Part shown: piece after piece, positions 6,105 to 50,708 of the stretch
How the letters are laid out: every line of letters begins with the position of its first letter
Position numbering within the stretch: the first letter of the stretch is position 1
NCBI GenBank assembly: GCA_043228905.1
Contig: JBHGNT010000021.1
Span: 4,526,001 to 4,590,000, forward strand
Direction: 5' to 3'
Source: Azolla caroliniana
Taxonomy: Eukaryota; Plantae; Polypodiophyta
DNA length: 64,000 nt
The notes under the pieces: model-generated
Databases searched by the model: none
Seen by the model: the letters and a program-made list of their open reading frames with translations, nothing else
Told to the model about the DNA's origin: nothing
Made by a program: the position numbers and the translations under genes

Positions 6105-6674
6105 CTTGTATATGTAAATATGTATATATATTTATATATTTATTTATCTAGTCGCCGGATGCCGTCGGATCACCGTTGCCGGATTGCCGCCGAATCACCG
6201 GCTCCATCGCCGGTCCGGTTTTGGTTGGCCAAAACCCTTTACGAGTAGCTAGCCCGCCTCCACTCTTAGTTCAAGTTACCTTGAACTCTCTATGCTCCAC
6301 ACATAGACACAAAGATAATATCTTTTGCTCCACCTTATATATGATGAGAGCTGTATTGGTCGTGCCTATATGGGATATCTCACAATTTTCTCCTTTCCTT
6401 TTACAAACTTTATACCCTCATATCTTGATATTTAGTTGTCCGTTTCTCGTGTAATAAAGTGCATTCGAAACCTCCATCATTTTGTACTTAGATATTAAAT
6501 ATATTTAAAATGTTATCTTCACAATTATTGTACTACGTGATTCATACTCGATTTCGTACGTTTTATAAGAATTTCACACTATTGCCGAAAATCTTCACGA
6601 CATCCACCCCCACCAAACCGCACGTCCTCCTGTACGTGCCAAGAAGAGAAGAAGTGAGATTTCGGCTACGATGA

Positions 6675-7640: not shown

Positions 7641-7717
7641 GTTCCTCTATGACCTGCCCAAGCACTCTCGTGGAATTCGGTCATCAGCGTCTCTTGCTCT
7701 TCTTTCTTTACCACCAC

Positions 7718-9285: not shown

Positions 9286-12200
9286 TGTTGAGAATCGACG
9301 CTTCGATTCACCTTCACCACTCGGCCACAACCAAGTAATTGCGAATCAATGCAGTAGAAAATAGGAACCACAGAGAGGAACACACGAATACACAGGGATT
9401 AACGTGGAAAACCCTAGATGGGAAAAACCACGGGAGTACAAGACTCCAAACCAACACTATACAAAGAGAAGTATACAATGGCGAGATGCAAGGCGACGAC
9501 CTTGAGCTCGCTGTCCTCGCCACAGGCGGCGGAAATACACAGAGGCGTCGTCCTCTTCCTCTCTCACGCTCTATCTCTCTCTCTCTCTCTCACGGCTGCT
9601 CCCACTTCACTCCTCTTGAGTGGAAAAACAGAAAAATGATCAGCAACTCTAAAACAGTTTGCCCTAAGTCATATTTATACATATATGACTTTGGGGCTAT
9701 TTACAACTATAGCCTCAGGGGCCCATAGCAAACATATTCACGGATATGTCCCTGCATCCGGATCGCTCTCCGGGTACATTCGTCATCCGGCTCCGAAGCC
9801 GGGGTCTTCATCATCCGGTTCCGAAACCGAAACCGGGCTCGTCGGCATTCATCTCCGACATCCGACCATCCCATCCGAAGGGACTGTAATCCCAACAAAC
9901 TCCCCCTTCACTTCGGCATGGGATGTCTTTCCAATCCGATCCTCTTCCGGCATGCTTCCAGCTTGTCGGGTGTGAGCACCTTGGTCAGCATATCCGACCC
10001 GTTCTCGTCCGTGTGGATCTTTGTCAGCACGAACTCCTTGTCTTCTATCCTTTCCCGGATCCAGTGATATCTTCGCTGGATGTGCTTCGTCCGGGAGTGA
10101 TAGGCCGCGTTCTTCGCAAGGTGGATTGCACTCTGACTGTCGCAGTAGAGTCGGTACTCCTCCTGCCGGATACCGAGCTCTCTAATGAAGTCCTTCATCC
10201 ATATTATTTCCTTGCCGGCTTCAACAGCTGCCATGTACTCCGCCTCCGTGGTTGACAACGCAACCGTCTTCTACAGCCTCGACTGCCACAAAACGGCCCC
10301 CCCTGCATACGTCATCACATACCCTGATGTGGACCGGCTGGTATCTGCATCAGCCGACATATCCGAATCGGTGAAGCCGTCGAGTTCGGGCTTACCGGAG
10401 CCGAATCGGAGGCACACGTTTGCCGTGCCTTTCAGGTATCGGAGTATCCACTTGGCCGCGTTCCAATGCTCTTTGCCGGGATTGCTCATGTACCGGCTCA
10501 CCACTCCGACTGCATATCCTATGTCCGGTCTCGTACACACCATGGCGTACATCAAGCTCCCGACGGCTGAGGCATACGGCACTTTCATCATATCCTCCTT
10601 TTCAGCCTTTGTCTTGGGACTTTGCTTGCTGGACAGCTTGCAGTTTGCCGGGAGGGTCGATCCGACCGGTCTTGCTTCCGACATGTTGAACCGGTGAAGC
10701 ACCTTCGTCACGTACTTCTCCTGTGACAGCCACAACTGCTTCTTCTTCCGGTCCCGGATGATGTGCATCCCTAGTATTTGCCTCGCCGGACCCAGGTCCT
10801 TCATTGAGAAGGTTCGGTGCAGAGCCTTCTTCAGCATCCGTATCTTGACCTGGTCCCGTCCGACGATCAACATGTCATCCACGTACAGGAGGAGTATTAG
10901 AAAGTCTCCTCCTTCGAACTTCTTCACAAACACGCAGTGGTCGGACTGCGTTTTGAGGTACCCCTCGTCGGTCATGAAGGAGTCGAACTTCCGGTACCAT
11001 TGCCGGGGAGCCTGCTTCAGTCCGTAAAGGCTCTTCTTCAACCGGCATACCAGGTGCTCCTTCCCTTTCTTCTCGAATCCTTCCGGTTGCTGCATGTAGA
11101 TCTCTTCATCGAGGTCACCGTGAAGGAACGCCGTCTTCACGTCCATCTGTTCTACCTCGAGGTCCATGCTTGCCGCTATGCTCAGCACCGTCCGGATGGA
11201 GGTCATCTTCACTACCGGGGCAAATATCTCGTCGAAGTCGACGCCCTTCTTCTGCTGAAACCCCTTCACCACGATCCTGGCTTTGTATCTCGGGGGGTTT
11301 CCGGCATCTCCCGGTTTCAGCTTGAACACCCACTTGTTTCGAAGTGCCCGCTTTCCTTTCGGCAACTCCACAAGTTCATATGTGTGGTTCTCATGCAGGG
11401 AATCCATCTCGTCCTGCATGGCACTCAACCACCTGCGGCTCTGGGTGTCATGTTTTGCTTCTTCAAAGCTCTCCGGCTCCCCCTCGTCGGTTAGCAGCAC
11501 GTGCTCTGGTTCCGGAAATCTCCGGGGGGCCCTTCTCTCTCTTAGAGGATATCTCCGTTCCGGAGTTTCGGTAATCGGTTCTTCCGATTCTTCTTCATCC
11601 GAATCCATTTCGGGATCGGGGCCGGTTCCGGTATCATTTTCATCTTCTTCGGTCGGTTCGGTTTCTTCACCGTCTTCGGCCGGATCCTCGAGTGCTAACC
11701 GGTCCCTTGCCGGTCGGGACTGCTCCTCGTAGAGTTGATCCTCACCGGTCGACTTGGAGCTCTTCATCTTCTTCTCCGACTCCCAGTCGGCGAGTGTCTT
11801 GTCCTCCATGAAGATGATGTCTCGACTCCTGAATATCTTCTTGTCGACCGGGTCCCATACTCGGTAGCCGAACTCGTCGTCGCCGTAACCGAGGAATATG
11901 CATGGCGGGGTCTTTGGATCTAGCTTCCCTCTCCGGTCCTTTGCCACATGCACGTATGCGAGACACCCGAACACCTTCAGATGCCGGTAGGATACTTCCC
12001 TACCGGTCCACACTCTCTGCGGCGTGTCTCCGTCCAAAGGTACTGAGGGTGATCGGTTTATCACATATGTCGCCGTCGACATTGCCTCAGCCCAAAACCC
12101 CTTGGGTAATTTCGCATGCGCCAGCATACTCCGAACCCTCTCCATTATGGTCCGGTTCATCCTCTCGGCCAGCCCGTTCAGTTCCGGCGTCTTCGGCACA

Positions 12201-14623
12201 GTAAACTCGAGTCGGATTCCCTTCGAGCGACAGTACTCCTGGAACTGCCCCCGGTATTCCCCTCCGTTATCCGCTCGTATTGCTTTCAGCTTCTTGCCGG
12301 ATTCCCTTTCCACTCTCGCGTGGAGTTCTTTGAAGACGCACAACACTTGGTCCTTTGTCTTCAGCGGTGCCGTCCACAGCTTCCGGCTGTGATCATCAAT
12401 GAATGTTACGAAGTACTGGGCTCCGCCATGTGACTTCGTTTCTACCTGACACACATCAGTGTGCACCAACTCCAATGGTGCGCTACGTCTCGTCGGTGGC
12501 CTTGAGTGGAAGGAGGTTCGGTTCTGCTTACCGGCCAGGCAATCGGTGCACTTCTCCAGGTGCACATGCTTCACTTGAATAAGGTTGTCTTCTGCAAGCC
12601 TCTTCATCCCCTTCTCACTCATGTGACACAGTCTTTTGTGCCACAGCTCACCGGCAGTGTCGGCTGCCACATTCAGCTCTTCAAGACATAACCGGGCATT
12701 CATCAGGTACAGTGTGTTGTCTTTCCGGGCCCGAGCCACTATCAAGCTCCCCTTGCTGAACTTCATTACGCCGTTCCGGATGCTACCTGTGTAGCCTTCA
12801 TCGTCTAGCCTCCCGGCCGAAATCAGGTTCAATCGAACCTCCGGAACATGTCGGACATCCTTCAACAGCATTTTGCATCCGGTCGGGGTTGTCAACCACA
12901 CGTCTCCTATACCGGCAATCCGGCACGTACCTTCATTTCCCATCCGAACACAGCCATGCTCACCGGCTGTGTAGGATGAGAAGTATCTTCTCTCCGGGGT
13001 CAGGTGGAACGATGCTCCGGAATCGACCACCCAGGTCGTCTCATCGCCGGCAATGTTTAGTTCACCTTCTTCGGTGATGAGCATGATTTCTTCCTCACTT
13101 GCCGCGAGTGCCGTTGTTCCTTTCCGGTCTTGCCCTCGCCGATCCGAACCTCTCCGGTCCGTGGCTCCCCGGTATGCACCGTTTCTCTCCGGTGACTTCT
13201 TCGAATCGGTGTCGTCGGCTCCGTTGTCTTTTCGGTAATGCCGACAATTCTTTCGGAAGTGCCCCGGCTTCCCACAGTGGAAGCATGTGGGCCTTCCTCT
13301 TGACTGCGACCGGGTCCCCGACTTCTCCCGTCTTTGCGGACTCCGGTTCCATTGTCTTCCCCGATCCGATTCGGTAAGCAGCGCCTTCGAGTCGGAGGCC
13401 GGTTCTTTATCTTTCCGACGCGCTTCTTCGTTCAAAATACTTGTCTTTACCGTTTGTAAGGACAAGTTATCTTCGGTGCAGGAGGTGCTGAGAGTCACCA
13501 CCAAGTTCTCCCAGCTTTCCGGCAATGTACACATCAGGATGATGGCTTGCATTGCATCCTCCAACGGGAACTTGATCGCCGCAAGCTGATTCACGAATCC
13601 CATGAACGTGCTTACGTGTTCCACCATACTCTCGCCGTCCCGGTACTTGAGATTCACTATCTTCCTCATCAGGGAGGTCCGGTTCAACGCATTCTTCCTC
13701 TCATAGAGGCCCGACAGCTTCCGCCACATCTCATATGCGTTGGTGTCGTTCGCCACATGTTGTAGAACGCTCACGTCGACGTATTGCCGAATGGTTGCAA
13801 CGGCTTTCCGGTTCAGAAGCCTCCATTCCGACTCAAGTACCCCCTTCGGTATTTCCGACCTGTCAATCGGTTCGTACAGGTCCCGAACAATCAGAAGATC
13901 CTCCATCTTGATCTTCCAGTCGGCGTAATTCTGTGCATTCAGCACCATCATCCCCGGCTGCCCGCTGCCGCCGCCTTCCATTTTCTGCAAAACCGAGCTC
14001 TGATACCAGTTTGTTGAGAATCGACGCTTCGATTCACCTTCACCACTCGGCCACAACCAAGTAATTGCGAATCAATGCAGCAGAAAATAGGAACCACAGA
14101 GAGGAACACACGAATACACAGGGATTAACGTGGAAAACCCTAGATGGGAAAAACCACGGGAGTACAAGACTCCAAACCAACACTATACAAAGAGAAGTAT
14201 ACAATGGCGAGATGCAAGGCGACGACCTTGAGCTCGCTGTCCTCGCCACAGGCGGCGGAAATACACAGAGGCGTCGTCCTCTTCCTCTCTCACGCTCTAT
14301 CTCTCTCTCTCTCTCTCACGGCTACTCCCACTTCACTCCTCTTGAGTGGAAAAACAGAAAAATGATCAGCAACTCTAAAACAGTTTGCCCTAAGTCATAT
14401 TTATACATATATGACTTTGGGGCTATTTACAACTATAGCCTCAGGGGCCCATAGCAAACATATTCACGGATATGTCCCTGCATCCGGATCGCTCTCCGGG
14501 TACATTCGTCATCCGGCTCCGAAGCCGGGGTCTTCATCATCCGGTTCCGAAACCGAAACCGGGCTCGTCGGCATTCATCTCCGACATCCGACCATCCCAT
14601 CCGAAGGGACCGTAATCCCAACA
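9286..14623 (-). mobile_element. Young Ty1/copia element C
   Basis: 612-bp LTRs 9286-9897 and 14012-14623 (3 substitutions seen); TSD CTCTT; iMet PBS 13997-14008; PPT 9898-9910. Confidence 0.97.
9908..13981 (-). pseudogene. Copia C gag-pol polyprotein with one premature stop (10271-10273)
   Basis: CCHC, DSGA, HKRLCH/rve, YVDD, RNase H motifs; CAG>TAG relative to the intact sister at 43500-47573. Confidence 0.93.
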
Positions 14624-14628
14624 CTCTT

Positions 14629-15201
14629 CAGGGAGAAGGAAATTCTCCTTTCCAACTCGTAGCTTCCCCTTCGTCTCTTTGGTGAAGACATGACCTATCT
14701 TCTTCGGACCTCTTAAGCTTGGATCGTTAGCGACTTCCTTCATCTTTTGCCAACTATCTTCCGGTAGCGGAACCGCAACTGGCTTGATCTTCTTATCCAC
14801 CATTTTATATTTCGTGTTGATGTCAACTTCCTTCATCGAGATGCCACGACGGTATTCATCGATGATAGCGTACATGTTGAAGGAGTTTACCGAAATCACG
14901 CATTGGTTGTGAAGATAGCTCAAGTCCACAACGTCCTCGATTTCGCCGATGGTGTCGTTAAATGAGGCTTCTTCCATAATATGAGTCACGAACTCCCCTT
15001 CTTCTATTATGTTCTCTTCTTTCAGCATCTTCTCGAATTCTTGTATCCGGTGCTTGTGATTCTTGTCGGGTAGTACTAGTTTACATGCGCCACTAGGTGT
15101 GACACATGTTGCTTCTCCTTGCAATCCACGCACTCTTCTTTCTTGTGGGGTCTTGTGATTGCTCGGACTATTTGTGCCCCATGCTTCAATAGTCCGCTCT
15201 A
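14629..15201 (-). pseudogene. pol: Gypsy B pol N-terminal segment (-1 frame relative to gag)
   Basis: Open from the slippery site to the copia insertion; TKYKMVDKKIKPV matches the ORF at 40928. Confidence 0.8.
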
Positions 15202-15208
15202 AAAATCC
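15146..15208 (-). promoter_or_regulatory. Predicted -1 ribosomal frameshift signal (GGAUUUU plus pseudoknot)
   Basis: Same sequence as 40748-40810. Confidence 0.7.
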
Positions 15209-17394
15209 GAGGATTCACCTCTGAGACTATCTCGATTCCTTTCATGATTGGCTCGCACCGTTAGGAATTGGACCGATCTTTGGTTGTCAAGACTCTTTAT
15301 TCGTGCGAAGGCTGCTCCATTATCGAACACTTTGGTCTCCATCCGAGATGATGTGATATAAGGTTGCCCTAGGATGACAGGATGCGACGCCGATTCTTGT
15401 ACGAAGAAGTGTTGATCCATCTCCACATCCCCGATCGTGACTTTTACATTGGGACAAGCTCCGTACAAGTCCTCCGTAGACTTTGTTGCCGCGCGAATCT
15501 TCCATCCGTGGTTTGTATTGATTGGCCATCTTCCCTTTTTGTAGAAGTCGGTTGACATGAGGTTGATCTCCGAGCAGTCGTCGATCAAGGCTACGACGGT
15601 CTCTTTCTTCTCCCCGATCTTCACCGGCGTCTCCGTTGTCGCTCGTGCCCAATGAGGTCGAGTGTAGTGGATGTCCACCATATCTTCATCGATTTTGTCT
15701 CTTGCCATCGTTATGGCATTCGTTTTTGCGTTTTGCGGCTTCTCTTCTTCCTCGTCCGATTGTTGTCTCTTTCTCTTTACAAGGTCCACGATCGTGTCAT
15801 GGAACTCCTTCGTAATGCCAAGCAATTCCCTCAAGGACAAAGTTACGTGGCTATCAAGAACTCGTTCTTCGAGAATCTTCTTTAGGTCCATCGTCTGCTT
15901 TATGTCCGACCTTAGCTTATAGGTAGGTATAGTCCTTGTCCTCCGAGTGGGGTCTTCCACACCAACCTTCACGGGCCGAACCGTTTCTTCAACTCGTATG
16001 CTTGGCTCCCCTTTTCGGCTTGATTCTCGTTCCTCCGTTTGTAAAGGTCGACTCATCTCCGTATCGTCCTTCTTTTTCGCCTTCCTTGTTTCATGTCTTT
16101 TTGATGGGCCTTGCTCTTCTATTCTCTTTCTCTTTTCTTCGACGAACACCTCGTGGTTGTCGCACATCACCTCTGCGAGTATGGTGTTGTCGTCCACCGG
16201 ATCCGACCACTCGGTTATGCTTTGCACGTTTCGGTCCGCAAGCTCTACCTCGTTCGATGTGACTTTTCCCTTCTTCTCATATTCGAGAACGGAAGTCCAA
16301 AACTTTGCTCCCGCTCTAGCAGCTTCAATCTTGTCTTTCCCGACTCTTATTCCGGCCGACGCAGCATAGTGCATCGCATCCACATGAGTCGCATCGGCAT
16401 CCTCCATAGATTTCTTCATTCCTCCTCTTCCGAAATTCACCCGTAGGGGTCTTCTAGTCTCGCTTGAGCAGATCATGTTGTCCTCTATGTATACGATATT
16501 TGGTCGAATCGCCTCTCGAAGGCTCGCACAATCCCTTCTCATGTGGTCCATGCTATCGCACCACACACATCTAAAGGGTTCTTTTCCTTTAGGGCCCCGA
16601 CGATTCATGTTGGCTAGCGTGACCTTCTCGAACTTCTTCGCTAGCTCTTCAATGATGTCGTCATCAATCTTCTTTTCTTCCACGTTACTTTGTCTCAGCG
16701 GCTCAGCTACTTTCGGCGGTCTTGCTTTCTCCGTGGTAGTCGGTCCCGTCAAGTCGGTGTCATCAACCCATTGGCGACGCTTGTCGAGCCTATTGCATGC
16801 CCGCTTCACCGCGATGCAGTCCGCTACGAGCCCATTTGCTTGGGTATCATCTTCGAGAAGAGTCCCCAACTCCCGTCTATCCTTTATGTCCACGGCCTTC
16901 AAGAAGTACAAAGTCTTGTCCTCTTCAAGCAACACTTGGTCCGTATTGGGGAGACGACTAAACATCTGGTCGAATTCGTCGTACACCCTCGAGACGCTCA
17001 TCTTCTTATTCTTCTTCTCTATCCACTTCATCAGGGCATGTCGAGTCATCCTCCTTGAGTCTTCAGTCACGAACTCCGCTAGTATCGTTTTCTCGAACTC
17101 GGACCATGTTGTCTTACCTTCTTGAAGCTCGATGATGCGTCTTTGGATGTTGTTGGCGACAACTCTCTTGAAGCTTGCGATTTGACGTGCCTCGGACACG
17201 TCCCTCTGATTCATCTCCCTTCTATATGCATCAAGGAACTTCGTAACGTTCCTTCCATCAAATTGGCCCTCGAGCTCTATGACACGATCAACAGCCTTCT
17301 CCACGCTCGCGTCGTTGTCCCGAGATCTCATCATTTGCTCGACGATTAGCATCATCCTTTCGAGCTCTCCTGCATGGTTGCTTGAGGACGCCAT
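15199..17394 (-). CDS. gag: Gypsy B Gag-protease ORF
   Basis: About 731 aa open; CVWCDSMDHMRRDC knuckle; aspartic protease region (ALIDDCSEINLM...VILGQPY). Confidence 0.88.
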   Translation of the reverse strand: MASSSNHAGELERMMLIVEQMMRSRDNDASVEKAVDRVIELEGQFDGRNVTKFLDAYRREMNQRDVSEARQIASFKRVVANNIQRRIIELQEGKTTWSEFEKTILAEFVTEDSRRMTRHALMKWIEKKNKKMSVSRVYDEFDQMFSRLPNTDQVLLEEDKTLYFLKAVDIKDRRELGTLLEDDTQANGLVADCIAVKRACNRLDKRRQWVDDTDLTGPTTTEKARPPKVAEPLRQSNVEEKKIDDDIIEELAKKFEKVTLANMNRRGPKGKEPFRCVWCDSMDHMRRDCASLREAIRPNIVYIEDNMICSSETRRPLRVNFGRGGMKKSMEDADATHVDAMHYAASAGIRVGKDKIEAARAGAKFWTSVLEYEKKGKVTSNEVELADRNVQSITEWSDPVDDNTILAEVMCDNHEVFVEEKRKRIEEQGPSKRHETRKAKKKDDTEMSRPLQTEERESSRKGEPSIRVEETVRPVKVGVEDPTRRTRTIPTYKLRSDIKQTMDLKKILEERVLDSHVTLSLRELLGITKEFHDTIVDLVKRKRQQSDEEEEKPQNAKTNAITMARDKIDEDMVDIHYTRPHWARATTETPVKIGEKKETVVALIDDCSEINLMSTDFYKKGRWPINTNHGWKIRAATKSTEDLYGACPNVKVTIGDVEMDQHFFVQESASHPVILGQPYITSSRMETKVFDNGAAFARIKSLDNQRSVQFLTVRANHERNRDSLRGESSDF

Positions 17395-17435
17395 CTCCAA
17401 GTATTAATCTTGACTTGATCCTTCCTACCACCTCT

Positions 17436-17453
17436 TTCACGTCGGGTTCACCA
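17436..17453 (-). promoter_or_regulatory. tRNA-Trp primer-binding site
   Basis: TGGTGAACCCGACGTGAA, complementary to the plant tRNA-Trp 3' end (recalled sequence); 8-nt spacer from LTR. Confidence 0.8.
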
Positions 17454-17909
17454 CTTAATTATGTCGTGAAGATCCGTCACTACGCACGGATCATGAGGCG
17501 GAACCGTCGGGGTTCTGGACCAGAAGGATTTAGAGTCGATACAAGCTTTGGCGAGAAAGTACTTAAGATAGATTGGGAAAGAGAGAAGTTGAGATTACAC
17601 GATTGAGAGAGATTGATTGAACTTTTAACTTTAGATTTAAGAAACAAGTTACACGATCAATTTGATAACGAATTTCTTCCTCTTAATTTTCATAAAAAAA
17701 ACCGTGTTTTTTCTCCTCCCCCTTCCTTCTTTTATAGATGCTCTCATGCATATGATGCATGTGAGGGTACAAGACATGCATAAATTGCATGTTTGCCATT
17801 TGGCGCTTATGTATTACATGTGGTGCATGATAACCATGTCACTCATTTTAGTTCTCATGTATGAGAATTTACATATAAAAGTACAATGATAGAAATATAA
17901 TTTCAACTA

Positions 17910-17982
17910 AATAGCATGGCTTAATGGTAAGCCAATTGACTCCTAACTTGGAGGTGCAAGGTTCGAATCCTTACTTGCCCTC
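17910..17982 (+). ncRNA. tRNA-like cassette in gypsy B 5' LTR
   Basis: A box at 17917, B box at 17960. Confidence 0.6.
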
Positions 17983-18468
17983 CTTGTATATGTAAATATG
18001 TATATATATTTATATATTTATTTATCTAGTCGCCGGATGCCGTCGGATCACCGTTGCCGGATTGCCGCCGAATCACCGGCTCCATCGTCGGTCCGATTTT
18101 GGTTGGCCAAAACCCTTTACTCCACTCTTAGTTCAAGTTACCTTGAACTCTCTATGCTCCACACATAGACACAAAGATAATATCTTTTGCTCCACCTTAT
18201 ATATGATGAGAGCTGTATTTGTCGTGCCTATGTGGGATATCTCACAATTTTCTCCTTTCCTTTTACAAACTTTATACCCTCATATCTTGACATTTAGTTG
18301 TCCGTTTCTCGTGTAATAAAGTGCATTCGAAACCTCCATCATTTTGTACTTAGATATTAAATCTATTTAAAATGTTATCTTCACAATTATTGTACTACGT
18401 GATTCATACTCGATTTCGTACGTTTTATAGGAATTTCACACTATTGCCGAAAATCTTAACGACAACGT

Positions 18469-37983: not shown

Positions 37984-38422
37984 TGTCGTGAAGATTTTCG
38001 GCAATAGTGTGAAAATCCCATAAAATGTACAAAATCGAGTATGAATCACATAATACAATAATTGTGAAGATAACATTTTAAATAAATTTAGTATCTAAGT
38101 ACAAAATGATGGAGGTTTCGAATGCACTTTATTACACGAGAAACGGACACCTAAATGTCAAGATATGAGGGTATAAAGTTTGTGAAAGGAAAAGAGAAAA
38201 TTGTGAGATATCCCACATAGGCACGACAAATACGGCTCTCATCATATATAAGGTAGAGCAAAAGCTATTATCTTTGTGTCTATCTGACGATGGAGCCGGT
38301 GATCCGGCGGTATCCGGTGACGGCATCCGACATCCGGCGAGGCACCGGTAACCGACGGCATCCGGCGAACCGACGTCCGGTGACTAGATAAATAAATATA
38401 TAAATATATATACATATACAAG

Positions 38423-38495
38423 GAGGACAAGTAAGGATTTGAACCTTGCACCTCCAAGTTAAGAGTCAATTGACTTACCATTAAGCCATGCCATT
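38423..38495 (-). ncRNA. tRNA-like cassette in gypsy D 5' LTR
   Basis: Reverse-complement A box 38478-38488, B box 38435-38445. Confidence 0.55.
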
Positions 38496-38965
38496 TAGTA
38501 GAATTTATATTTCTATCATTATACTTTTACATGTAAATTCTCATACATGAGAGCTAAAATGAGTGACATGGTTATCATGCACCGCATGTAATACATAAGC
38601 TCCAAATGGCAAACATGCATTTTATGCATGTCTTGTACCCTCACATGCATCATACGCATGAGAGCATCTATAAAAGAAGGAAGGGGGAGGAGAAAAAACA
38701 CGTTTTTTTTTGTTATGAAATTAAGAAGAAGAAATTCGTTATCAAATTGATCGTGTAACTTGTTTCTTAAATCCAAAGATAAAAGTTCAATCAATCTCTC
38801 TCAATCGTTTAATCTCAACTTCTCTCTTTCCCAATCTATCTTAAGTACTTTCTTGCTAAAGCTTGCGCCAAAGCTTGTACCGACTTAGAATCCTTCCGGT
38901 CCAGAACCCCGGCGGTTCCGCCTCACGATCCGCGCGTAGTGACGGATCTTCACGACATAATTAAG

Positions 38966-38983
38966 TGGTGAACCCGACGTGAA
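38966..38983 (+). promoter_or_regulatory. tRNA-Trp primer-binding site
   Basis: TGGTGAACCCGACGTGAA after spacer TAATTAAG. Confidence 0.8.
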
Positions 38984-39024: not shown

Positions 39025-40757
39025 ATGGCGTCCTCAAGCAACCAAGCGGGAGAGCTCGAAAGGATGATGCTAATCATCGAGCAAATGATGAGATCTCGGG
39101 ACAACGACGCGAGCATGGAGAAGGTTGTCGATCGTGTCGTAGAGCTCGAGGGCCAATTCGATGGAAGGAACGGTACGAAGTTCCTTGATGCATATAGAAG
39201 GGTGATGAATCAGAGGGACGTGTCCGAGGCACGTCAAATCACAAGCTTCAAGCCGCCAAGACAAAGTAACGTGGAAGAAAAGAAGATTGATGATGACATC
39301 ATTGAAGAGCTAGCGAAGAAGTTCGAGAAGGTCACACTAGCCAACATGAATCGTCGGGGCCCTAAAGGAAAAGAACCCTTTAGATGCATGTGGTGCGATA
39401 GCATGGACCACATGAGGAGGGATTGTGCGAGCCTTCGAGAGGCGATTCGACAAAATATTGTATACATAGAGGACAACATGATTTGCTCAAGCGAGACTAG
39501 AAGACCCCTACGGGTGAATTTCGGAAGAGGAGGAATGAAGAAATCTATGGAGGATGCCGATGCGACTCATGTGGATGTGATGCACTATGCTGCGTCGGCC
39601 GGAATAAGAGTCGGGAAAGACAAGACTGAAGTTGCTAGAGCGGGAGCAAAGTTTTGGACTTCCGTTCTCGAATATGAGAAGAAGGGAAAGTCACATCGAA
39701 CGAGGTAGAGCTTGCAGACCGAAGTGTGCAAAGCATAACCGGGTGGTCGGATCCGGTGGACGACGACACCATACTCGCAGAGGTGATGTGCGACAACCAC
39801 GAGGTGTTCGTCGAAGAAAAGAGAAAGAGAATAGAAGAGCAAGGCCCATCAAAAAGACATGAAACAAGGAACATGAAAAAGAAGGACGATGCGGAGACGA
39901 GTCGACCTTTACAAACGGAGGAACGAGAATCAAACCGAAAAGGGGAGCCGAGCATACGAGTTGAAGAAACGGTTCGGCCCGTGAAGGTTGGTGTCGAAGA
40001 CCCCGCTCGGAGGACAAGGACTATACCTACCTATAAGCTAAGGTCGGACATAGAGCAGACGATGGACCTAAAGAAGATTCTCGAAGAACGAGTTCTTGAT
40101 AGCCACGTAACTTTGTCCTTGAGGGAATTGCTTGGTATTACGAAGAAGGAGTTCCATGACATGATTGTGGACCTTGTAAAGAGAAAGAGACAACAATCGG
40201 ACGAGGAAGAAGAGAAGCCGCAAAAAGCAAAAACGAATGCCATAACGATGGCAAGAGACAAAGTCGATGAAGATATGGTGGACAGCCACTATACTCGACC
40301 TCATTGGGCACAAGCGACAACGGAGATGCCGGTGAAGATCGGGGAGAAGAAAGAGACCGTGGTAGCCTTGATTGACCACGGCTCGGAGATCAACCTCATG
40401 TCAACCGACTTCTACAAAAAAGGAAGATGGCCAATCAATACAAACCACGGATGGAAGATTCGCGCGGCAACAAAGTCTACGGAGGACTTGTACGGAGCTT
40501 GTCCCAATATCAAAGTCACGATCAGGGATGTGGAGATGGAACAACACTTCTTCGTACAAGAATCAGTGTCGCATCCTATCATCCTAGGGCAACCTTATAT
40601 CACATCATCTCGGATGGAGACCAAAGTGTTCGATAATGGAGCAGCCTTCGCACGAATAAAGAGTCTTGACAACCAAAGATCGGTCCAATTCCTAACGGTG
40701 CGAGCCAATCATGAAAGGAATCGAGATAGTCTCAGAGGCGAATCCTTGGATTTTTAG
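39025..40757 (+). pseudogene. gag: Gypsy D Gag-protease (155-aa deletion, frameshift near 39690)
   Basis: ORFs 39019-39708 and 39726-40757 near-identical to B; ALIDHGSEINLM. Confidence 0.9.
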
Positions 40758-40810
40758 AGCGGACTATTGAAGCATGGGGCACAAATAGTCCGAGCAATCA
40801 CAAGACCCCA
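40748..40810 (+). promoter_or_regulatory. Predicted -1 ribosomal frameshift signal
   Basis: GGATTTT, 5-nt spacer, stem CGGACTATT/AATAGTCCG, loop TGGGG pairing with downstream CCCCA. Confidence 0.7.
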
Positions 40811-42803
40811 CAAGAAAGAAGAGTGTGTGGATTGTGAGGAGAAGCAACATGTGTCACACCTAGTGGCGCATGTAAACTAGTACTACCCGACAAGAAGCAC
40901 AAGCACCGGATACAAGAATTCGAGAAGATGCTGAAAGAAGAAAACATAATAGAAGAAGGAGAGTTCGTGACTCATATTATGGAAGAAGCCTCATTTAACG
41001 ACACCATCAGTGAAATCGAGGACGTCGTGGACTTGAGCTATCTTCACAACCAACGTGTGATTTCGGTTAACTCCGTCAACATGTATGCTATCATCAATGA
41101 ATACCGTCATGGCATCTCGATGAAGGAAGCTGACATCAACACGAAATATAAAACGGTGGATAAGAAGATCAAGCCAGTTGCGGCTCCGCTACCGGAAGAT
41201 AGCTGGCTAAAGATGAAGGAAGTCGCTAACGATCCAAGCTTAAGAGATCCGAAGAAGATAGGTCATGTCTTCACCAAAGAGATGAAGGGGAAGCTACGAG
41301 TTGGAAAGGAGAATTTCCTTCTCCTTGAAGAGGAACGAATGTTTCGCGATATGCTTGAGAGACATGGGAAGGCTTTCGCATTCTTCCCACGAGAAATCGG
41401 ATGCGCTGACCCAAAGGTTATAGAGCCGATGGTGATCTTCACGGTGCCTCATGTGCCTTGGAATTTGAAACCGATACCGGTTCCGAGAGCACACCTTCCG
41501 AAGTTGATCGAGCTCTTAAAGGACAAGGTGAGTATGGGAATTCTAGAATCGTCGAATGCTCCTTATTCCAATAGGTGGTTCACGGTGCCGAAGAAGAATG
41601 GATCATTGCGATTCATCCAAGATCTTCAACCCGTCAACAAGGTGACAATTCGAAATGCCGGGATCGGTCCGAGCGTGGACAAATTTGCCGAAGCATTTGC
41701 AGGCCGGTCCATCTACTCCATTGGCGATCTCTACTCCGGATATGACCAATTCCAATTGAGGATTGACAGTCGGGACATTACAACCATGAGGACTCCGATC
41801 GGGCTTGTGCGGATGTGTACCTTACCCCAAGGCGCAACGAACTCGGTGGCTCATATGGTAAATGCCATGAATAAAGTCTTGAAGGATTGCATCCCGGACA
41901 TCACGATGCCATTCTTGGATTATATTCCGATAAAAGGATGTTCAGATAAGGAGAAAGATGAATCGAAAGATAAGGAAGGTTGTAGAAAGTTCGTTGCGGA
42001 TCATATGAAAGATTGCGAGAAGGTGCTTCAAAGGCTCGAAGATACGAATTTGACATTTTCGGGAGAAAACTCCGCATTCGGGCAACCGGAGATCTTGGTG
42101 GTAGGTCACTTGTGTGGAGCATACGGCCGGAAGCCCTTGCCATCCAAAGTGAACGCAATCCAAGACATGAAAGAAGAATGCGAAAACCAAACAGAGGTTC
42201 GAAGGTTCCTTGGAGCGTGCGCGTTTTATAATATATGGATTCCTCACTACGCTCATGTCGTCAAGCCGTTATATGGACTACTAAAGAAAAGAATGAAGTT
42301 CGAATGGCAAGACGAGCACACAAATGCGATGCGAAGATTAAAGAAACTGCTTCTTGAAGCTCCGGCACTAAGGAAGGCCGACTATGCCGAAGGGAAACCA
42401 ATTTACGTGACCGTAGATACGAGCCCAACCGGAATCGGGTGGGTCATCAATCAAGAAGGTGAAGATAATGCACGATATGCCGTCTGGTTTGGAGCAAAGG
42501 TTCTCAGCGAACGGCAACAAAGATATGCCCAAGTCAAGCGGGAACTTTGGGGTATTGTGTCGGTAGTGAAGACGGACAAAGGTTACCTAATCGGGTCAGA
42601 AGTGATAATAGAGACAGATTGTCTCCCAATTATCGGAATGGTCTCGGGATGTGCGACCCCAGATCTTGCTATGCTAAGGTGGATCGCCTACATCAAGTCT
42701 TTAAACCCAGAGATCCGTCACATTGCGGGGAAGAAGAACGCCATGGCTGACATGCTGTCGAGGGCAAGATTTTCAAATGGAAGTAACATGGTTTCGGAAG
42801 ATG
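40755..42803 (+). pseudogene. pol: Gypsy D pol (RT-RNase H)
   Basis: SNRWFTVPKK, LPQG, FLDY (mutated from FLDD), DTSPTGIG, ETDC; stop near 40835; interrupted by copia E. Confidence 0.9.
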
Positions 42804-42867
42804 TGTTGGGATTTCGGTCCCTCCGGATGGGATGTCCGGAGATGAATGACGGCAAGCCCGGTTGCGG

Positions 42868-42996
42868 TTACGGAGCCGGATGATGAAGACCCCGGCTACG
42901 GAGCCGGATGATGAAGACCCCGGCTACGGAGTCGGATGATGAAGACCCCGGCTACGGAGCCGGATGATGAAGACCCCGGTTACGGAGCCGGATGAC
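42868..42996 (+). repeat. 28-bp tandem repeat in U3, about 4.5 copies
   Basis: Unit CTACGGAGCCGGATGATGAAGACCCCGG. Confidence 0.95.
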
Positions 42997-43499
42997 GAAT
43001 GTACCCGGTGAGAGATCCGGATGCGGAGACATATTTGTGAATATGTTTGCCAAGAGCCCTTGAGGCTATATTTGTAAATAGCCCGAAAGTCATATGTGTA
43101 TAAATATGACTTAGGGCAAACAGTTAAGTTGTTGTTGCTCATTTTTCTGTTTTCCACCAAGAGGGAGCGAAGTGAGAGCAGCCGAGAGAGAGAGAGACGA
43201 AGAGGTCGTTGCCTCTGTGTATTACCACCGCCTGTGGTGAAGATAGTGAGCTCAAGGTTGTTGCCCTGTAGCTTCACCACTGTACATCTCTGTTTTAGTG
43301 ATAGTTGGAGTTTGAGGACTCCCGTGGTTTTTTTTCCCATTTAGGGTTTTCCACGTAAAACATCCAGTGTACTCTTCTCTCTTTTGTTTTTTTCGTGCAT
43401 TGTTGTATTTCCCGTTTTCTGTGAATCGATCCTGTTCCTCGGTTGTGGCCGAGCACGGAATTTCGACAAAGTGGTATCAGAGCGACGGTAACACAGAAA

Positions 43500-46400
43500 A
43501 TGGAAGGCGGCAGCAGCGGGCAGCCGGGGATGATGGTGCTAAATGCGCAGAACTACGCCGACTGGAAGATAAAGATGGAGGATCTGCTCATTGTTCGGGA
43601 CCTGTATGAACCGATCGACAGGTCGGAAATACCCAAGGGGGTACTTGAGACGGAGTGGAGGCTTCTGAACCGGAAAGCCGTTGCAACCATTCGGCAATAC
43701 GTCGACGTGAGCGTTCTACAACACGTGGCGAACGACACCAACGCATATGAGATGTGGAGGAAGCTGTCGGGCCTCTACGAGAGGAAGAATGCGTTGAACC
43801 GGACCTCCCTGATGAGAAAGATAGTGAACCTCAAGTACCGGGACGGCGAGAGTATGGTGGAACACGTAAGCACGTTCATGGGATTCGTGAACCAGCTTGC
43901 GGCGATCAAGTTCCCGTTGGAGGATGCAATGCAAGCCATCATCCTGATGTGTACATTGCCGGACAGCTGGGAGAACTTGGTGGTGACTCTCAGCACCTCC
44001 TGCACCGAAGATAACTTGTCCCTACAAACGGTAAAGACAAGTATTTTGAACGAAGAAGCGCGTCGGAGAGATAAGGAACCGGCCTCCGACTCGAAGGTGC
44101 TGCTTACCGAATCGGAACGGGGAAGACAATGGAACCGGAGTCCGCAAAGACGGGAGAAGTCGGGGACCCGGTCGCAGTCAAGAGGAAGACCCACATGCTT
44201 CCACTGTGGGAAGCCGGGGCACTTCCGGAAGAATTGTCGGCATTACCGAAAAGACAACGGATCCGACGACACCGATTCAAAGAAGTCACCGGAGCGAAAC
44301 GGCGCATACCGGGGAGCCACGGACCGGAGAGGTCCGGATCGGCGAGGGCAGGACCGGAAAGGAACGACGGCACTCGCGGCAAGTGAAGAGGAGATCATGC
44401 TCATCACCGAAGAAGGTGAACTAAACATTGCCGGCGATGAGACTACCTGGGTGGTCGATTCCGGAGCGTCGTTCCACCTGACCCCGGAAAGTAGATACTT
44501 CTCATCCTACACAGCCGGTGAACATGGCTGTGTTCGGATGGGAAATGAAGGTACGTGCCGGATTGCCGGCATAGGAGACGTATGGTTGACAACCCCGACC
44601 GGATGCAAAATGCTGCTGAAGGATGTCCGACACGTTCCGGAGGTTCGATTGAACCTGATTTCGGCCGGGAGGCTAGACGATGAAGGCTACACAGGTAGCA
44701 ACCGGAACGGCGTAATGAAGTTCAGCAAGGGAAGCCTGATAGTGGCTCGGGCCCGGAAAGTCAACACACTGTACCTTATGAATGCCTGGTTGTGTCCGGA
44801 AGAGCTGAATGTGGCAGCCGACACTGCCGGTGAGCTGTGGCACAAAAGACTGTGCCACATGAGTGAGAAGGGGATGAAGAGGCTTGCAGAAGACAACCTT
44901 ATTCCAGTGAAGCATGTGCACCTGGAGAAGTGCACCGATTGCCTGGCCGGTAAGCAGAACCGAACCTCCTTCCACTCAAGGCCACCGACGAGACGTAGCG
45001 CACCATTGGAGTTGGTGCACACTGATGTGTGTCAGGTAGAAACGAAGTCACATGGCGGAGCCCAGTACTTCGTGACTTTCATTGATGATCACAGCCGGAA
45101 GCTGTGGACAGCACCGTTGAAGACAAAGGACCGAGTATTGTCCGTCTTCAAAGAACTCCACGTGAGAGTGGAAAGAGAATCCGGCAAGAAGCTGAAAGCG
45201 ATACGAGCGGATAACGGAGGAGAATACCGGGGGCAGTTCGCGGAGTACTGTCGCTCAAAAGGAATCCGGCTCGAGTTTACTGTGCCGAAGACGCCGGAAC
45301 TGAACGGGCTGGCCGAGAGGATGAACCGGACCATAATGGAGAGGGTTCGGAGTATGCTAGCGCATGCGAAATTACCCAAGGGGTTTTGGGCTGAGGCGAT
45401 GTCGACGGCGACATACGTGATAAATAGATCACCCTCAGTACCTTTGGACGGAGACACGCCGCAGAGAGTGTGGACCGGTAGGGAAGTATCCTACCGGCAT
45501 CTGAAGGTGTTCGGGTGCCTCGCATATGTGCATGTGGCTAAGGACCGGAGAGGAAAGCTAGATCCAAAGACCCGGCCATGCATATTCCTCGGTTACGGCG
45601 ATGACGAGTTCGGCTACCGAGTATGGGACCCGGTCGACAAGAAGATATTCAGGAGTCGTGATATCATCTTCATGGAGGACAAGACACTCGCCGACTGGGA
45701 GTCGGAGAAGAAGATTAAGAGCTTCAAGTCGACCGGTGAGAATCAACTCTACGAAGAGCAGTCCCGACCGGCAAGGGACCGGTTAGCACTCGAGGATCCG
45801 GCCGAAGACGGTGAAGAAACAGAACCGGCCGAGGAAGATGAAACTGATACCGGAACCGGCCCCGATCCCGAAATGGATTCGGATGAAGAGGAAACGGAGG
45901 AGCCGGTTACCGAAGCTCCGGAACGGAGATATCCTCTAAGAGAGAGAAGGGCCCCCCGGAGATTTCCGGAACCAGAGCACGTGCTGCTAACCGACGAAGG
46001 GGAGCCGGAGAGCTTTGAAGAAGCAAAGCATGACACCCAGAGCCGCAGGTGGTTGAGTGCCATGCAGGACGAGATGGATTCCCTGCATGAGAACCACACA
46101 TATGAACTTGTGGAGTTGCCGAAAGGAAAGCGGGCACTTCGAAACAAGTGGGTGTTCAAGCTGAAACCGGGAGATGCCGAAAACCCCCCGAGATACAAAG
46201 CCAGGATCGTGGTGAAGGGGTTTCAGCAGAAGAAGGGCGTCGACTTCGACGAGATATTTGCCCCGGTAGTGAAGATGACCTCCATCCGGACGGTGCTGAG
46301 CATAGCGGCAAGCATGGACCTCGAGGTAGAACAGATGGACGTGAAGACGGCATTCCTTCACGGTGACCTCGAAGAAGAGATCTACATGCAGCAACCGGAA

Positions 46401-47573
46401 GGATTCGAGAAGAAAGGGAAGGAGCACCTGGTATGCCGGTTGAAGAAGAGCCTTTACGGACTGAAGCAGGCTCCCCGGCAATGGTACCGGAAGTTCGACT
46501 CTTTCATGACCGACGAAAGGTACCTCAAAACGCAGTCCGACCACTGCGTGTTTGTGAAGAAGTTCGAAGGAGGAGACTTTCTAATACTCCTCCTGTACGT
46601 GGACGACATGTTGATCGTCGGACGGGACCAGGTCAAGATACGGATGCTGAAGAAGGCTCTTCACCGAACCTTCTCAATGAAGGACTTGGGTCCGGCGAGG
46701 CAAATATTAGGGATGCACATCATCCGGGACCGGAAGAAGAAGCAGTTGTGGCTGTCACAGGAGAAGTACGTGACAAAGGTGCTTCAACGGTTCAACATGT
46801 CGGAAGCAAGACCGGTCGGGTCAACCCTCCCGGCAAACTGCAAGTTGTCCAGCAAGCAAAGCCCCAAGACAAAGGCTGAGAAGGAGGACATGATGAAAGT
46901 GCCATATGCCTCTGCCGTCGGAAGCTTGATGTACGCAATGGTGTGTACAAGACCGGACATTGGATACGCAGTCGGAGTGGTGAGCCGGTACATGAGCAAT
47001 CCCGGCAAAGAGCATTGGAACGCGGCCAAATGGATACTCCGATACCTGAAGGGCACGGCAAACGTGTGCCTCCGATTCGGCTCCGGTAAGCCCGAACTCG
47101 ACGGCTTTACCGATTCGGATATGTCGGCTGATGCAGATACCAGCCGGTCCACATCAGGGTATGTGATGACGTATGCAGGGGGAGCTGTTTCATGGCAGTC
47201 GAGGCTGCAGAAGACGGTTGCGTTGTCAACCACAGAGGCGGAGTACATGGCGGCTGTTGAAGCCGGCAAGGAAATAATATGGATGAAGGACTTCATTAGA
47301 GAGCTCGGTATCCAGCAGGAGGAGTACCGACTCTACTGCGACAGTCAGAGTGCCATCCACCTTGCGAAGAACGCGGCTTATCACTCCCGGACGAAGCACA
47401 TCCAGCGAAGATATCACTGGATCCGGGAAAGGATAGAAGACAAGGAGTTCGTGCTGACGAAGGTCCACACGGACGAGAACGGGTCGGATATGCTGACCAA
47501 GGTGCTCACACCCGACAAGCTGGAAGCATGCCGGAAGAGGATCGGACTGGAGAGACATCCCATGCCGAAGTGA
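43500..47573 (+). CDS. Ty1/copia gag-pol polyprotein, 1357 aa, uninterrupted
   Basis: CCHC, DSGA, HHCC, D-D-E integrase, YVDD and RNase H motifs in one frame. Confidence 0.96.
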   Translation: MEGGSSGQPGMMVLNAQNYADWKIKMEDLLIVRDLYEPIDRSEIPKGVLETEWRLLNRKAVATIRQYVDVSVLQHVANDTNAYEMWRKLSGLYERKNALNRTSLMRKIVNLKYRDGESMVEHVSTFMGFVNQLAAIKFPLEDAMQAIILMCTLPDSWENLVVTLSTSCTEDNLSLQTVKTSILNEEARRRDKEPASDSKVLLTESERGRQWNRSPQRREKSGTRSQSRGRPTCFHCGKPGHFRKNCRHYRKDNGSDDTDSKKSPERNGAYRGATDRRGPDRRGQDRKGTTALAASEEEIMLITEEGELNIAGDETTWVVDSGASFHLTPESRYFSSYTAGEHGCVRMGNEGTCRIAGIGDVWLTTPTGCKMLLKDVRHVPEVRLNLISAGRLDDEGYTGSNRNGVMKFSKGSLIVARARKVNTLYLMNAWLCPEELNVAADTAGELWHKRLCHMSEKGMKRLAEDNLIPVKHVHLEKCTDCLAGKQNRTSFHSRPPTRRSAPLELVHTDVCQVETKSHGGAQYFVTFIDDHSRKLWTAPLKTKDRVLSVFKELHVRVERESGKKLKAIRADNGGEYRGQFAEYCRSKGIRLEFTVPKTPELNGLAERMNRTIMERVRSMLAHAKLPKGFWAEAMSTATYVINRSPSVPLDGDTPQRVWTGREVSYRHLKVFGCLAYVHVAKDRRGKLDPKTRPCIFLGYGDDEFGYRVWDPVDKKIFRSRDIIFMEDKTLADWESEKKIKSFKSTGENQLYEEQSRPARDRLALEDPAEDGEETEPAEEDETDTGTGPDPEMDSDEEETEEPVTEAPERRYPLRERRAPRRFPEPEHVLLTDEGEPESFEEAKHDTQSRRWLSAMQDEMDSLHENHTYELVELPKGKRALRNKWVFKLKPGDAENPPRYKARIVVKGFQQKKGVDFDEIFAPVVKMTSIRTVLSIAASMDLEVEQMDVKTAFLHGDLEEEIYMQQPEGFEKKGKEHLVCRLKKSLYGLKQAPRQWYRKFDSFMTDERYLKTQSDHCVFVKKFEGGDFLILLLYVDDMLIVGRDQVKIRMLKKALHRTFSMKDLGPARQILGMHIIRDRKKKQLWLSQEKYVTKVLQRFNMSEARPVGSTLPANCKLSSKQSPKTKAEKEDMMKVPYASAVGSLMYAMVCTRPDIGYAVGVVSRYMSNPGKEHWNAAKWILRYLKGTANVCLRFGSGKPELDGFTDSDMSADADTSRSTSGYVMTYAGGAVSWQSRLQKTVALSTTEAEYMAAVEAGKEIIWMKDFIRELGIQQEEYRLYCDSQSAIHLAKNAAYHSRTKHIQRRYHWIRERIEDKEFVLTKVHTDENGSDMLTKVLTPDKLEACRKRIGLERHPMPK

Positions 47574-47647
47574 AGGGGGAGTTTGTTGGGATTTCGGTCC
47601 CTCCGGATGGGATGTCCGGAGATGAATGACGGCAAGCCCGGTTGCGG

Positions 47648-47748
47648 TTACGGAGCCGGATGATGAAGACCCCGGCTACGGAGCCGGATGATGAAGACCC
47701 CGGCTACGGAGCCGGATGATGAAGACCCCGGTTACGGAGCCGGATGAC
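47648..47748 (+). repeat. 28-bp tandem repeat in 3' LTR, about 3.5 copies
   Basis: One unit fewer than the 5' LTR (637 vs 665 bp). Confidence 0.95.
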
Positions 47749-48225
47749 GAATGTACCCGGTGAGAGATCCGGATGCGGAGACATATTTGTGAATATGTTT
47801 GCCAAGAGCCCTTGAGGCTATATTTGTAAATAGCCCGAAAGTCATATGTGTATAAATATGACTTAGGGCAAACAGTTAAGTTGTTGTTGCTCATTTTTCT
47901 GTTTTCCACCAAGAGGGAGCGAAGTGAGAGCAGCCGAGAGAGAGAGAGACGAAGAGGTCGTTGCCTCTGTGTATTACCACCGCCTGTGGTGAAGATAGTG
48001 AGCTCAAGGTTGTTGCCCTGTAGCTTCACCACTGTACATCTCTGTTTTAGTGATAGTTGGAGTTTGAGGACTCCCGTGGTTTTTTTTCCCATTTAGGGTT
48101 TTCCACGTAAAACATCCAGTGTACTCTTCTCTCTTTTGTTTTTTTCGTGCATTGTTGTATTTCCCGTTTTCTGTGAATCGATCCTGTTCCTCGGTTGTGG
48201 CCGAGCACGGAATTTTGACAAGATG

Positions 48226-49664
48226 AAGATGTCGCCCTCGACTTCTTCAAGATGGCTCGATTGTCGGCGGAAGACCAGGACACGCAAACCCTCCACGCCT
48301 TCAACAAGAACGAGTACGAAGGAGAGTGGTTACTCATCGGTAGATTCCTAAGAACATTGACGACAGATGCTTCGTTGACAAAGGAGGAGGCCCTATGAGT
48401 CCGAAAGAAAGCTTACCGATACTTCTTGAAGGGAGGATTCCTTTGGTGACATCCAAAAAGAAGGACAAGAATACCACGTCGAGTGGTGGTAAAGAAAGAA
48501 GAGCAAGAGACACTGATGACCGAATTCCACGAGAGTGCTTGGGCAGGTCATAGAGGAACATGGGCGACGTTCGAAAAGTTGAAGGAGAAGTACTGGTGGC
48601 CAAGCATGTATAAAGATGTACTCCATTTCGTGTCCACGTGCGAAACTTGTCAAATATATTCAAATATACGTCATCGTGATGAGTTACAGCCGACATACCC
48701 ACTCACCATACACCTCAAATGGATGGTGGATCTGGTCTCGATGCCAATGGGAGTGGGACAAATGAAGTACTTCGCTCTGGCGAGGGAAGACTTGACAAAT
48801 CAAGTGGAAGGACGAGCCTTGACAAATAAGACAACTTCAGCCGTTTGCAAATTTCTGCTTGAAGAGGTTGTTTGCCGATATGGATGTGTAGGGAAGATAG
48901 TGGCCGACCGAGGGGAGTTGGACGCGCACGAAGCGACAGAGCTCTTCGAAAGACTAGGCGTGAAGCTCTCCCTCACGACTGCCTACAATCCGGAAGCGAA
49001 TGGGAAGATCGAGCGAGGGCATGGACCTATCGTTAACGCCATCGTACGAGCATGCAACGGTCGAGTCGGGAATTGGCCACGACTATTACCCTATGCCTTG
49101 TGGGCCGATAGAACGACACATAGCTCGGTGACAGGGTATATGCCGACGGAGCTTATGTATGGACAAAAGCCGATTATGCCCATCGAAAGGACGATCGCCT
49201 CATGGGTAGCGATACCGTGGGAGAACGAGATGAGCCGAGAAGAGTTATTAGCGGTGCGGATAAGGCAACTTGAAAGAAGACCTGAAGATTTAGAAAAAGC
49301 GCGAAAGATGATGGAGGCAGCCCGAGTAAAGAACAAAGTTCGGTTCGACAACACGCATCGACTTCGTCCCAAGAAGATTGAAGAAGGGGATTGGGTTTTG
49401 GTTTACGATAGTACCCTTGACAATCAACACAGTACAACAAGGAAGTTCGCAAGAAGATGGTTCGGGCCGTATGTGGTGACAAGTGCCAATGATAATGCCA
49501 CATACCACCTTGCGGAACTAGACGGATCAAGGTTGGCCATACCCATTGCGGGAAAAAGAGTAAAGATTTTCAAGAAAAGACAAGACAAGGATCCTGACCT
49601 CAATCACCTCGACGATGAACATAATAGAGCGGATGTAAATGAAGACATGGAGGAATCTAATTGA
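48226..49664 (+). pseudogene. pol: Gypsy D integrase
   Basis: H-x5-GH...CETC zinc finger, rve core and WFGPY; upstream TGA stops near 48396 and 48447. Confidence 0.9.
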
Positions 49665-50167
49665 TCACCGTAGCCGAAATCTCACTTTCTCTCTTCTTGG
49701 CACGTACAGGAGGATGTGCGGTTTGGTGGGGGTGGATGTCGTGAAGATTTTCGGCAATAGTGTGAAAATCCCATAAAACGTACAAAATCGAGTATGAATC
49801 ACATAATACAATAATTGCACGAAGATAACATTTTAAATAAATTTAATATCTAAGTACAAAATGATGGAGGTTTCGAATGCACTTTACGGCTCTCATCATA
49901 TATAAGGTAGAGCAAAAGCTATTATCTTTGTGTCTATGTGTGGAGCATAGAGAGTTCAAGGTAACTTGAACTGAGAGTGGAGGTGGGCTAGCTACTCGTA
50001 AAGGGTTTTGACCAACCAAAACTGAACCAACGATGGAGCCGGTGATCCGACGGCATCCGACACCGGTGAGGTGATGGCATCCGGCGGCAACCGACGACGA
50101 AGATGTGACAGCATCCGGCGAACTGGCGTCTGGTGACTAGATAAATAAATATATATACATATACAAG

Positions 50168-50242
50168 GAGGACAAGTATAAGGATTCGAACCTTGCACCT
50201 CCGAGTTAAGAGTCAATTGGCTTACCATTAAGCCATGCCATT
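50168..50242 (-). ncRNA. tRNA-like cassette in gypsy D 3' LTR
   Basis: Reverse-complement A box 50225-50235, B box 50182-50192. Confidence 0.55.
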
Positions 50243-50708
50243 TAGTGAAATTTATATTTCTATCATTGTACTTTTACATGTAAATTCTCATACATGAAAG
50301 CTAAAATGAGTGACATGGTTATCATGCACCACATGTAATACATAAGCGCCAAATGGCAAACATGCATTTTATGCATGTCTTGTACCCTCACATGCATCAT
50401 ACGCATGAGAGCATCTATAAAAGAAGGAAGGGGGAGGAGAAAAAACACGTTTTTTTTTGTTATGAAATTAAGAAGAAGAAATTCGTTATCAAATTGATCG
50501 TGTAACTTGTTTCTTAAATCCAAAGATAAAAGTTCAATCAATCTCTCTCAATCGTTTAATCTCAACTTCTCTCTTTCCCAATCTATCTTAAGTACTTTCT
50601 CGCTAAAGCTTGCGCCAAAGCTGGTACCGACTTAGAATCCTTCCGGTCCAGAACCCCGGCGGTTCCGCCTCACGATCCGCGTGTAGTGACGGATCTTCAC
50701 GACACCAG

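Follow-up and report, generated by a model that had tools for sequence, protein, structure and literature searches.

A likely programmed −1 frameshift signal between Gag-protease and Pol in Phygy-like Ty3/gypsy retrotransposons, and a probable −2 variant in a sister lineage

Based on sequence comparison, a likely programmed −1 frameshift signal was identified at the end of the Gag-protease (Gag-PR) reading frame of Phygy-like Ty3/gypsy retrotransposons, where it would join Gag-protease to reverse transcriptase (RT), RNase H (RH) and integrase (IN); the probability attached to this reading is about 0.88. The elements lie in a 64,000-nucleotide stretch of Azolla caroliniana DNA, hereafter the window. 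The parts of a canonical −1 signal are present: a slippery heptamer in the upstream frame, a downstream ORF in the −1 frame which overlaps the site, and a predicted RNA structure downstream. Most ribosomes would stop at the Gag-PR stop codon and release Gag-PR, while a minority would pause at the pseudoknot with GAU and UUU in the P and A sites, slip one base and continue. The protease would thus be made at the level of Gag and only RT-RH-IN would be rationed, giving abundant Gag-PR and scarce Gag-PR-Pol. The signal, conserved throughout the lineage, is very likely functional; it is of a known kind, in a lineage for which no earlier report of it was found in the openly accessible literature. 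The control of the Gag:Pol ratio in plant LTR retrotransposons is poorly resolved, and the signal described here would be a compact, lineage-wide −1 signal with dozens of natural variants.

Element A is an LTR retrotransposon on the forward strand which encodes Gag (DUF4100), protease, RT, RNase H and integrase, and lacks a chromodomain. Its 5' LTR (37984..38957) is preceded by the target-site copy CCGG and followed by a primer-binding site complementary to host tRNA-Trp (38966..38981). The retropepsin-type protease domain, with a D-H-G triad, occupies the end of the Gag ORF (40290..40754), and the linker, RT and RNase H parts of pol are located in the −1 frame (40838..42803). A Ty1/copia element is nested after RNase H on the same strand (42804..48221), followed by the integrase part of pol (48450..49664), which has no chromodomain match, and the 3' LTR (49737..50704), which is followed by CCAG. 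The two LTRs are ~96% identical over their longest aligned blocks. Element A is a decayed copy: 29 codons on, its −1 frame runs into a TGA (40835-37) peculiar to this copy, and gag has a frame break as well. Element B (5584..18464, minus strand) belongs to the same family, with the target duplication ACGT on both sides, LTRs 97% identical, and a Copia insertion on the minus strand at 9284-14623.

The coordinates given in the original prediction were all confirmed by direct reading. In the Gag-PR frame the heptamer GGATTTT (40748..40754) is read as G_GAT_TTT, its last six bases being the final two Gag-PR codons, and the stop codon TAG (40755..40757) comes next as the opening part of a 5-nt spacer. 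The predicted stem 1 (40760..40792), identified by folding, scanning and covariation, comprises 9 bp, with CGGACTATT (40760-68) pairing with AATAGTCCG (40784-92). In the predicted stem 2 (40775..40810), placed by an H-type scan with a per-sequence register, the loop sequence TGGGG (40775-79) can pair with CCCCA (40806-10). Folding, which had been proposed as a check, returned stem 1 as the minimum free energy hairpin of element A (z = −3.5 in a 61-nt window, 2 of 200 shuffles being as good), and the H-type scan gave a stacking energy of −27.7 kcal/mol, with 0 of 100 shuffles as good. The same heptamer, spacer and pseudoknot are present in element B, as had been claimed, in the form of an identical sequence on the minus strand (15146..15208, read from 15208 to 15146). 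The further claim that the −1 frame of element B stays open from the heptamer into pol needs a qualification: no stop occurs in 195 codons of this frame, which the Copia insertion at 14623 then cuts before the RT core.

For comparison 170 loci were gathered, 30 of them picked by the junction itself and for that reason not independent; after 12 loci without a usable protease end had been dropped, 158 junctions were available. In-frame G_G[AG]U_UUY was located at the Gag-PR stop, or five codons before it, in 133 of the 158, and G_GUU_UUU one codon before the stop in 13. The other 12 fit neither motif, several being visibly mutated. At loci found by RT similarity, which were not chosen by the site, G_G[AG]U_UUY was present at the Gag-PR end in 16 of 19. 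Metagenome loci found by protease peptides carried it in 69 of 79 cases and G_GUU_UUU in 2 more (71/79), and as 76 of the 80 metagenome loci come from one accession series they are not independent samples. The in-frame background of slip motifs was 3 in 11,467 other Gag-PR codons. At the protein level, 43 of the 67 homologous proteins ending near the expected place finish in Asp-Phe, the Riccia proteins included, while those of P. patens finish in Asp-Phe plus five residues and those of Adiantum in Asp/Gly-Phe plus five. No relatives were found among viral contigs. A third junction class was seen at L124, L128, L139 and L140 (proteins P0053, P0027 and P0033), in which Gag-PR does not stop until five codons beyond the heptamer, within stem 1; it is shared with the P. 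patens and Adiantum protein endings, and two loci use G_GGU_UUU.

Of the 122 heptamer-bearing loci which reach pol, 114 have it in the −1 frame, and in 101 this frame is open from the site, over 12 different linker lengths. The 8 loci with pol in another frame, and 13 more with a stop before pol, are read as decay. The pol frame generally opens shortly before the site, at a distance of only a few codons to some tens, so the place of the shift is pinned. The continuity of the −1 frame bears on whether pol could be expressed from a spliced transcript, as it is in Ogre, with the heptamer and hairpin being incidental. A non-coding gap is absent, given the 101 of 122 loci open from the site, and over 82 aligned columns there was one GT at ≥70% conservation, inside stem 1, and no AG; splicing is considered highly improbable. 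An equally small chance is given to pol being translated by ribosomes which reinitiate, or initiate internally, beyond the Gag-PR stop, the structure then having its role in initiation: the stop directly precedes the structure and candidate ATGs are present in the pol frame, but the first of these falls anywhere from codon 4 to codon 108, the slippery heptamer is retained amid variable residues, and the pol frame has no interruption as far back as the heptamer. Readthrough of the stop was discarded as an explanation, since pol does not lie in frame 0 and each of the three stop codons occurs (TAG 15, TAA 10 and TGA 3 among 28 non-redundant relatives). In annotations these ORFs are also split or mis-spliced.

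The structure was investigated in 34 non-redundant junctions (<88% identity) by a perfect-helix H-type scan with dinucleotide shuffles. In 29 of the 34 an H-type pseudoknot was obtained which at most 5 of 100 shuffles matched; four of the remaining five gave no knot and one was not significant. A value of −20 kcal/mol was reached by 28 of the 34 junctions, and by 13 of 204 control windows taken from other parts of these elements. The spacer between the heptamer and the predicted structure is 5-6 nt in most junctions, which lies within the range of 5-9 nt for canonical −1 signals. Covariation across family copies, another of the proposed checks, was computed on a MAFFT alignment built without structure and came out in favor of a conserved stem 1, which was 85% paired, and 7 of its 10 pairs change on both sides in a compensated manner. 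The covariation score was 0.310. Shuffled alignments gave 0.209, none of the 500 reaching the observed value, and slid partners gave 0.09-0.15; in such a comparison related sequences may score above the shuffles even where no structure exists. Because the pseudoknot lies over sequence that also encodes Pol, its conservation may partly be at the protein level. In the same blind alignment stem 2 was paired in only 58.8% of cells because the length of loop 3 varies; with a register fitted to each sequence, on which the support for stem 2 rests, at least 5 bp were found in 31 of 34 junctions, with swaps among G-C, A-U and C-G. No Rfam match to the pseudoknot was obtained at E up to 5.

The catalytic triad of retropepsins is D-[ST]-G. 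Most proteins of this group depart from it, D-H-G being found in 123 of the 134 motif-bearing proteins, D-S-G in 3 and D-T-G in 2; the triad of element A is at window 40374-40382. Three lines of evidence, two of them weak alone, nevertheless indicate that the domain before the slip site is a retropepsin. The domain had its first match in the atlas at 0.99, to a cluster with Asp_protease_2 on 17% of members, and the ten best family matches were all in one clan. Among the members, 14 of 30 match gag-asp_proteas at E up to 0.1. A fold search gave retropepsins as top matches at E 0.06 or weaker, from a poor AlphaFold model (pLDDT 53), and a sequence search of the PDB returned only two chance-level matches (E ~0.08). 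No second protease was detected in Pol by Pfam on full ORFs or by a motif look-up in three ORFs. The prediction that the −1 shift lies after the protease has strong comparative support. Between the shift site and RT there is a linker of ~130 codons at the Pol N-terminus (window 40755-41150); it has no Pfam match, and acidic and hydrophobic motifs recur in it across families.

In the avian alpharetrovirus RSV the shift lies right after PR. It is likewise a −1 shift into RT in the available text of PMC3542737, and the avian retroviral protease is described in that of PMC3185560 as equimolar with Gag and as a slow enzyme. By analogy with this slow enzyme it may be speculated that D-H-G damps protease activity. 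RSV differs in its heptamer and its host, and in being a retrovirus with env.

The original prediction held this layout to be unusual for plant retrotransposons. This was not upheld, as the GAG-PROT / RT-RH-INT split is common in Retand and Ogre. In Additional file 5 of REXdb a single-stop split is given for 49% of Retand, and for Ogre a spacer split in 35% and a single-stop split in 14% (PMC6317226). The same file lists overlaps before PROT for Tcn1, Selgy and SIRE, stop or spacer splits after PROT for Retand and Ogre, and an overlapping-frame split after PROT for no lineage, Phygy being 'ND' (PMC6317226). Retand and Ogre (Tat clade) thus use an in-frame stop or a spliced spacer, in contrast to the overlapping frame, heptamer and pseudoknot described here, and the new part is the mechanism after the protease and not the protease/RT split itself. 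The plant elements in the available text of a 2016 review, taken from a 2003 survey, are only +1-frame cases (PMC5009743).

The heptamer had been compared with the −1 site of dianthoviruses, and this agrees with the same review, whose available text lists G_GA starts for dianthoviruses and umbraviruses (PMC5009743). G_GAU_UUU is the heptamer shared with these signals. In the accessible account of PEMV RNA2 a nearby stop codon matters, and here also a stop adjoins the site. The dianthovirus and umbravirus stimulator is a bulged stem with a long-range partner ~4 kb away, whereas a compact H-type knot is predicted here.

Elements A and B appear to belong to the Phygy-like lineage of Ty3/gypsy. 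Phygy, a clade of non-chromovirus Ty3/gypsy elements, in the available text of the REXdb paper has a tRNA-Trp primer site and a 4-bp NCGN target duplication, which are shared by the present family together with the domain order and a size near 7.5-8.3 kb (PMC6317226). The order GAG-PROT-RT-RH-INT, with the chromodomain absent, was determined by Pfam on 6 full ORFs. The complement of the primer-binding site was present in host tRNA-Trp genes at 3 of 3 loci checked, the confirmed genes being these three loci only. The target duplication is of the 4-bp NCGN type, ACGT/ACGT in element B and CCGG/CCAG, with one mismatch, in element A, and similar ends occur in fetched copies. The homologues with names are proteins of Physcomitrium, Adiantum and Riccia, of which those of P. 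patens reach ~61% at best in the match to Gag-PR. The ORF organization of Phygy is entered as 'ND' in REXdb, and a recoding signal is absent from the descriptions in the available text (PMC6317226). The genome contains 372 matches to family 1.

A sister lineage surfaced in a search with a P. patens homologue. All 13 of its loci (L099:1912-1992, L102:1918-1998 and 11 loci in L143-L169) have pol in the +1/−2 frame, which is open from the site in 11 of the 13. A second set of 12 loci, which overlaps the first in some copies, comprised 7 with an open +1/−2 frame, 1 with a stop in that frame, 3 whose pol follows stops and is in frame 0, and 1 lacking pol. The junction consists of AG_GUU_UUU, one sense codon, a stop and the same pseudoknot with a compensated stem 2. 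In the blind alignment it is off by exactly one column, and the sister spacer to the conserved stem start is therefore 5 nt versus 6. The genome contains 68 matches to the sister pattern, and their junctions are all of one length.

Ten sister copies, chosen from matches with long open Gag frames, were fetched: LTR blocks were 99.3-100% identical in 9 of the 10, as in young copies, an uninterrupted pol of 1181 codons was found in 5, and both ORFs were whole in 3. Between the two subfamilies dS was 1.0-1.2 and dN 0.07-0.13 in both Gag-PR and Pol, which indicates purifying selection; copy L145 has a frameshift in pol, and dN/dS was taken from another copy. The catalytic motifs are intact. In a midpoint-rooted tree (22 of 35 rows kept) the two −2 subfamilies form one clade (100/100) among −1 lineages, and as the tree is unrooted beyond the midpoint it does not prove the direction of the −1/−2 change. 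From the constant junction, the young copies, the intact pol, dN below dS between subfamilies and the single clade, the +1/−2 frame is judged to be maintained and not a lesion. A non-autonomous family, in which the frame was broken once and the element copied in trans, would fit the finding of only two diverged subfamilies and the four of 12 loci with pol in frame 0 behind stops or missing; it is improbable in view of the selection on both Gag-PR and Pol, the whole pol in half of the fetched copies, their near-identical LTR blocks and the 68 equal junctions.

In the sister lineage the same pseudoknot probably makes ribosomes slip back two bases on G_GUU_UUU; the spacer is shorter by 1 nt, which would leave the register of the ribosome to the knot unchanged. 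With fair likelihood, one conserved pseudoknot would serve −1 shifting in most Phygy-like lineages and −2 shifting in a derived, recently active lineage. A −2 slip is favored over +1 because the site is the arterivirus −2 site and a shorter spacer favors −2. Sister pol is formally in the +1 frame, most known routes into such a frame are +1 shifts, and in antizyme a 3' pseudoknot serves the +1 shift, as far as the available text of PMC5009743 goes; a +1 slip on GUU_UUU therefore carries some weight, and is rated unlikely on three grounds. G_GUU_UUU is the −2/−1 site of arteriviruses, with full A-site re-pairing in −2 (PMC6675879, available text); with pseudoknots, a spacer 1-2 nt shorter favors −2 in vitro in the accessible parts of PMC3458567 and PMC7618472; and the sense codon immediately preceding the stop, GAC or UAC, is unable to re-pair at +1. 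L130 (stop at 1268), one of the 12 loci that fit neither motif, has G_GUU_UUC with a 6-nt spacer and pol in −1, and may be a transitional form linking the −1 class to the −2 class.

The available text of PMC5009743 names three natural users of −2 frameshifting, phage Mu, the arteriviruses and Trichomonas vaginalis virus 1, while antizyme gives −2 only in a foreign host; among the descriptions of natural −2 slips that were found, none has such a pseudoknot. The sister lineage would resemble arterivirus −2 frameshifting at the slip site only. G_GUU_UUU is that of nsp2TF (PMC6675879, available text), and in one sister subfamily, as in nsp2TF, the −1 frame meets an immediate stop. The arterivirus shift is driven by proteins on a C-rich motif, RNA structure not being predicted in the available text of PMC7939443, in contrast to the pseudoknot 5 nt downstream here. 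That motif, 10 nt downstream and acted on by viral and PCBP proteins, is absent in the sister lineage, where stem 1 occupies that position. Trichomonas vaginalis viruses 1 and 2-4 offer a parallel, being sister lineages which use −2 and −1 at the same Gag-Pol junction; a shared stimulatory structure is not part of the accessible descriptions. The probable −1 to −2 switch is the more novel part of these results. If true, it would be a natural −2 frameshift stimulated by RNA structure and would put the mRNA-tension (spacer-length) model to a test by evolution; the choice of −1 or −2 by spacer length could be tested on a natural pair with one shared structure.

Several other features of the window and genome were observed. 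A second member of the Phygy-like family, element C (window 55102-58002, minus strand), is ~71% identical and has sequence resembling a LINE endonuclease region in place of its 5' part; the element itself (55102-57664) is without its junction, and its family was read from other copies. The Copia insertions in elements A and B are young and of one family, with LTRs 99.5% identical, and lie at different pol sites, so they are independent insertions. Within the Copia LTR at window 42804-43027 there is a tandem repeat of ~28 bp whose copy number differs between the LTRs. Clusters and tandem arrays with a period of ~0.9-1.2 kb match the 3' end of tRNA-Trp (C8:17796786-17823371, C16:4989495-5105657 and C5:10105608-10112201); the three confirmed tRNA-Trp loci lie outside them.
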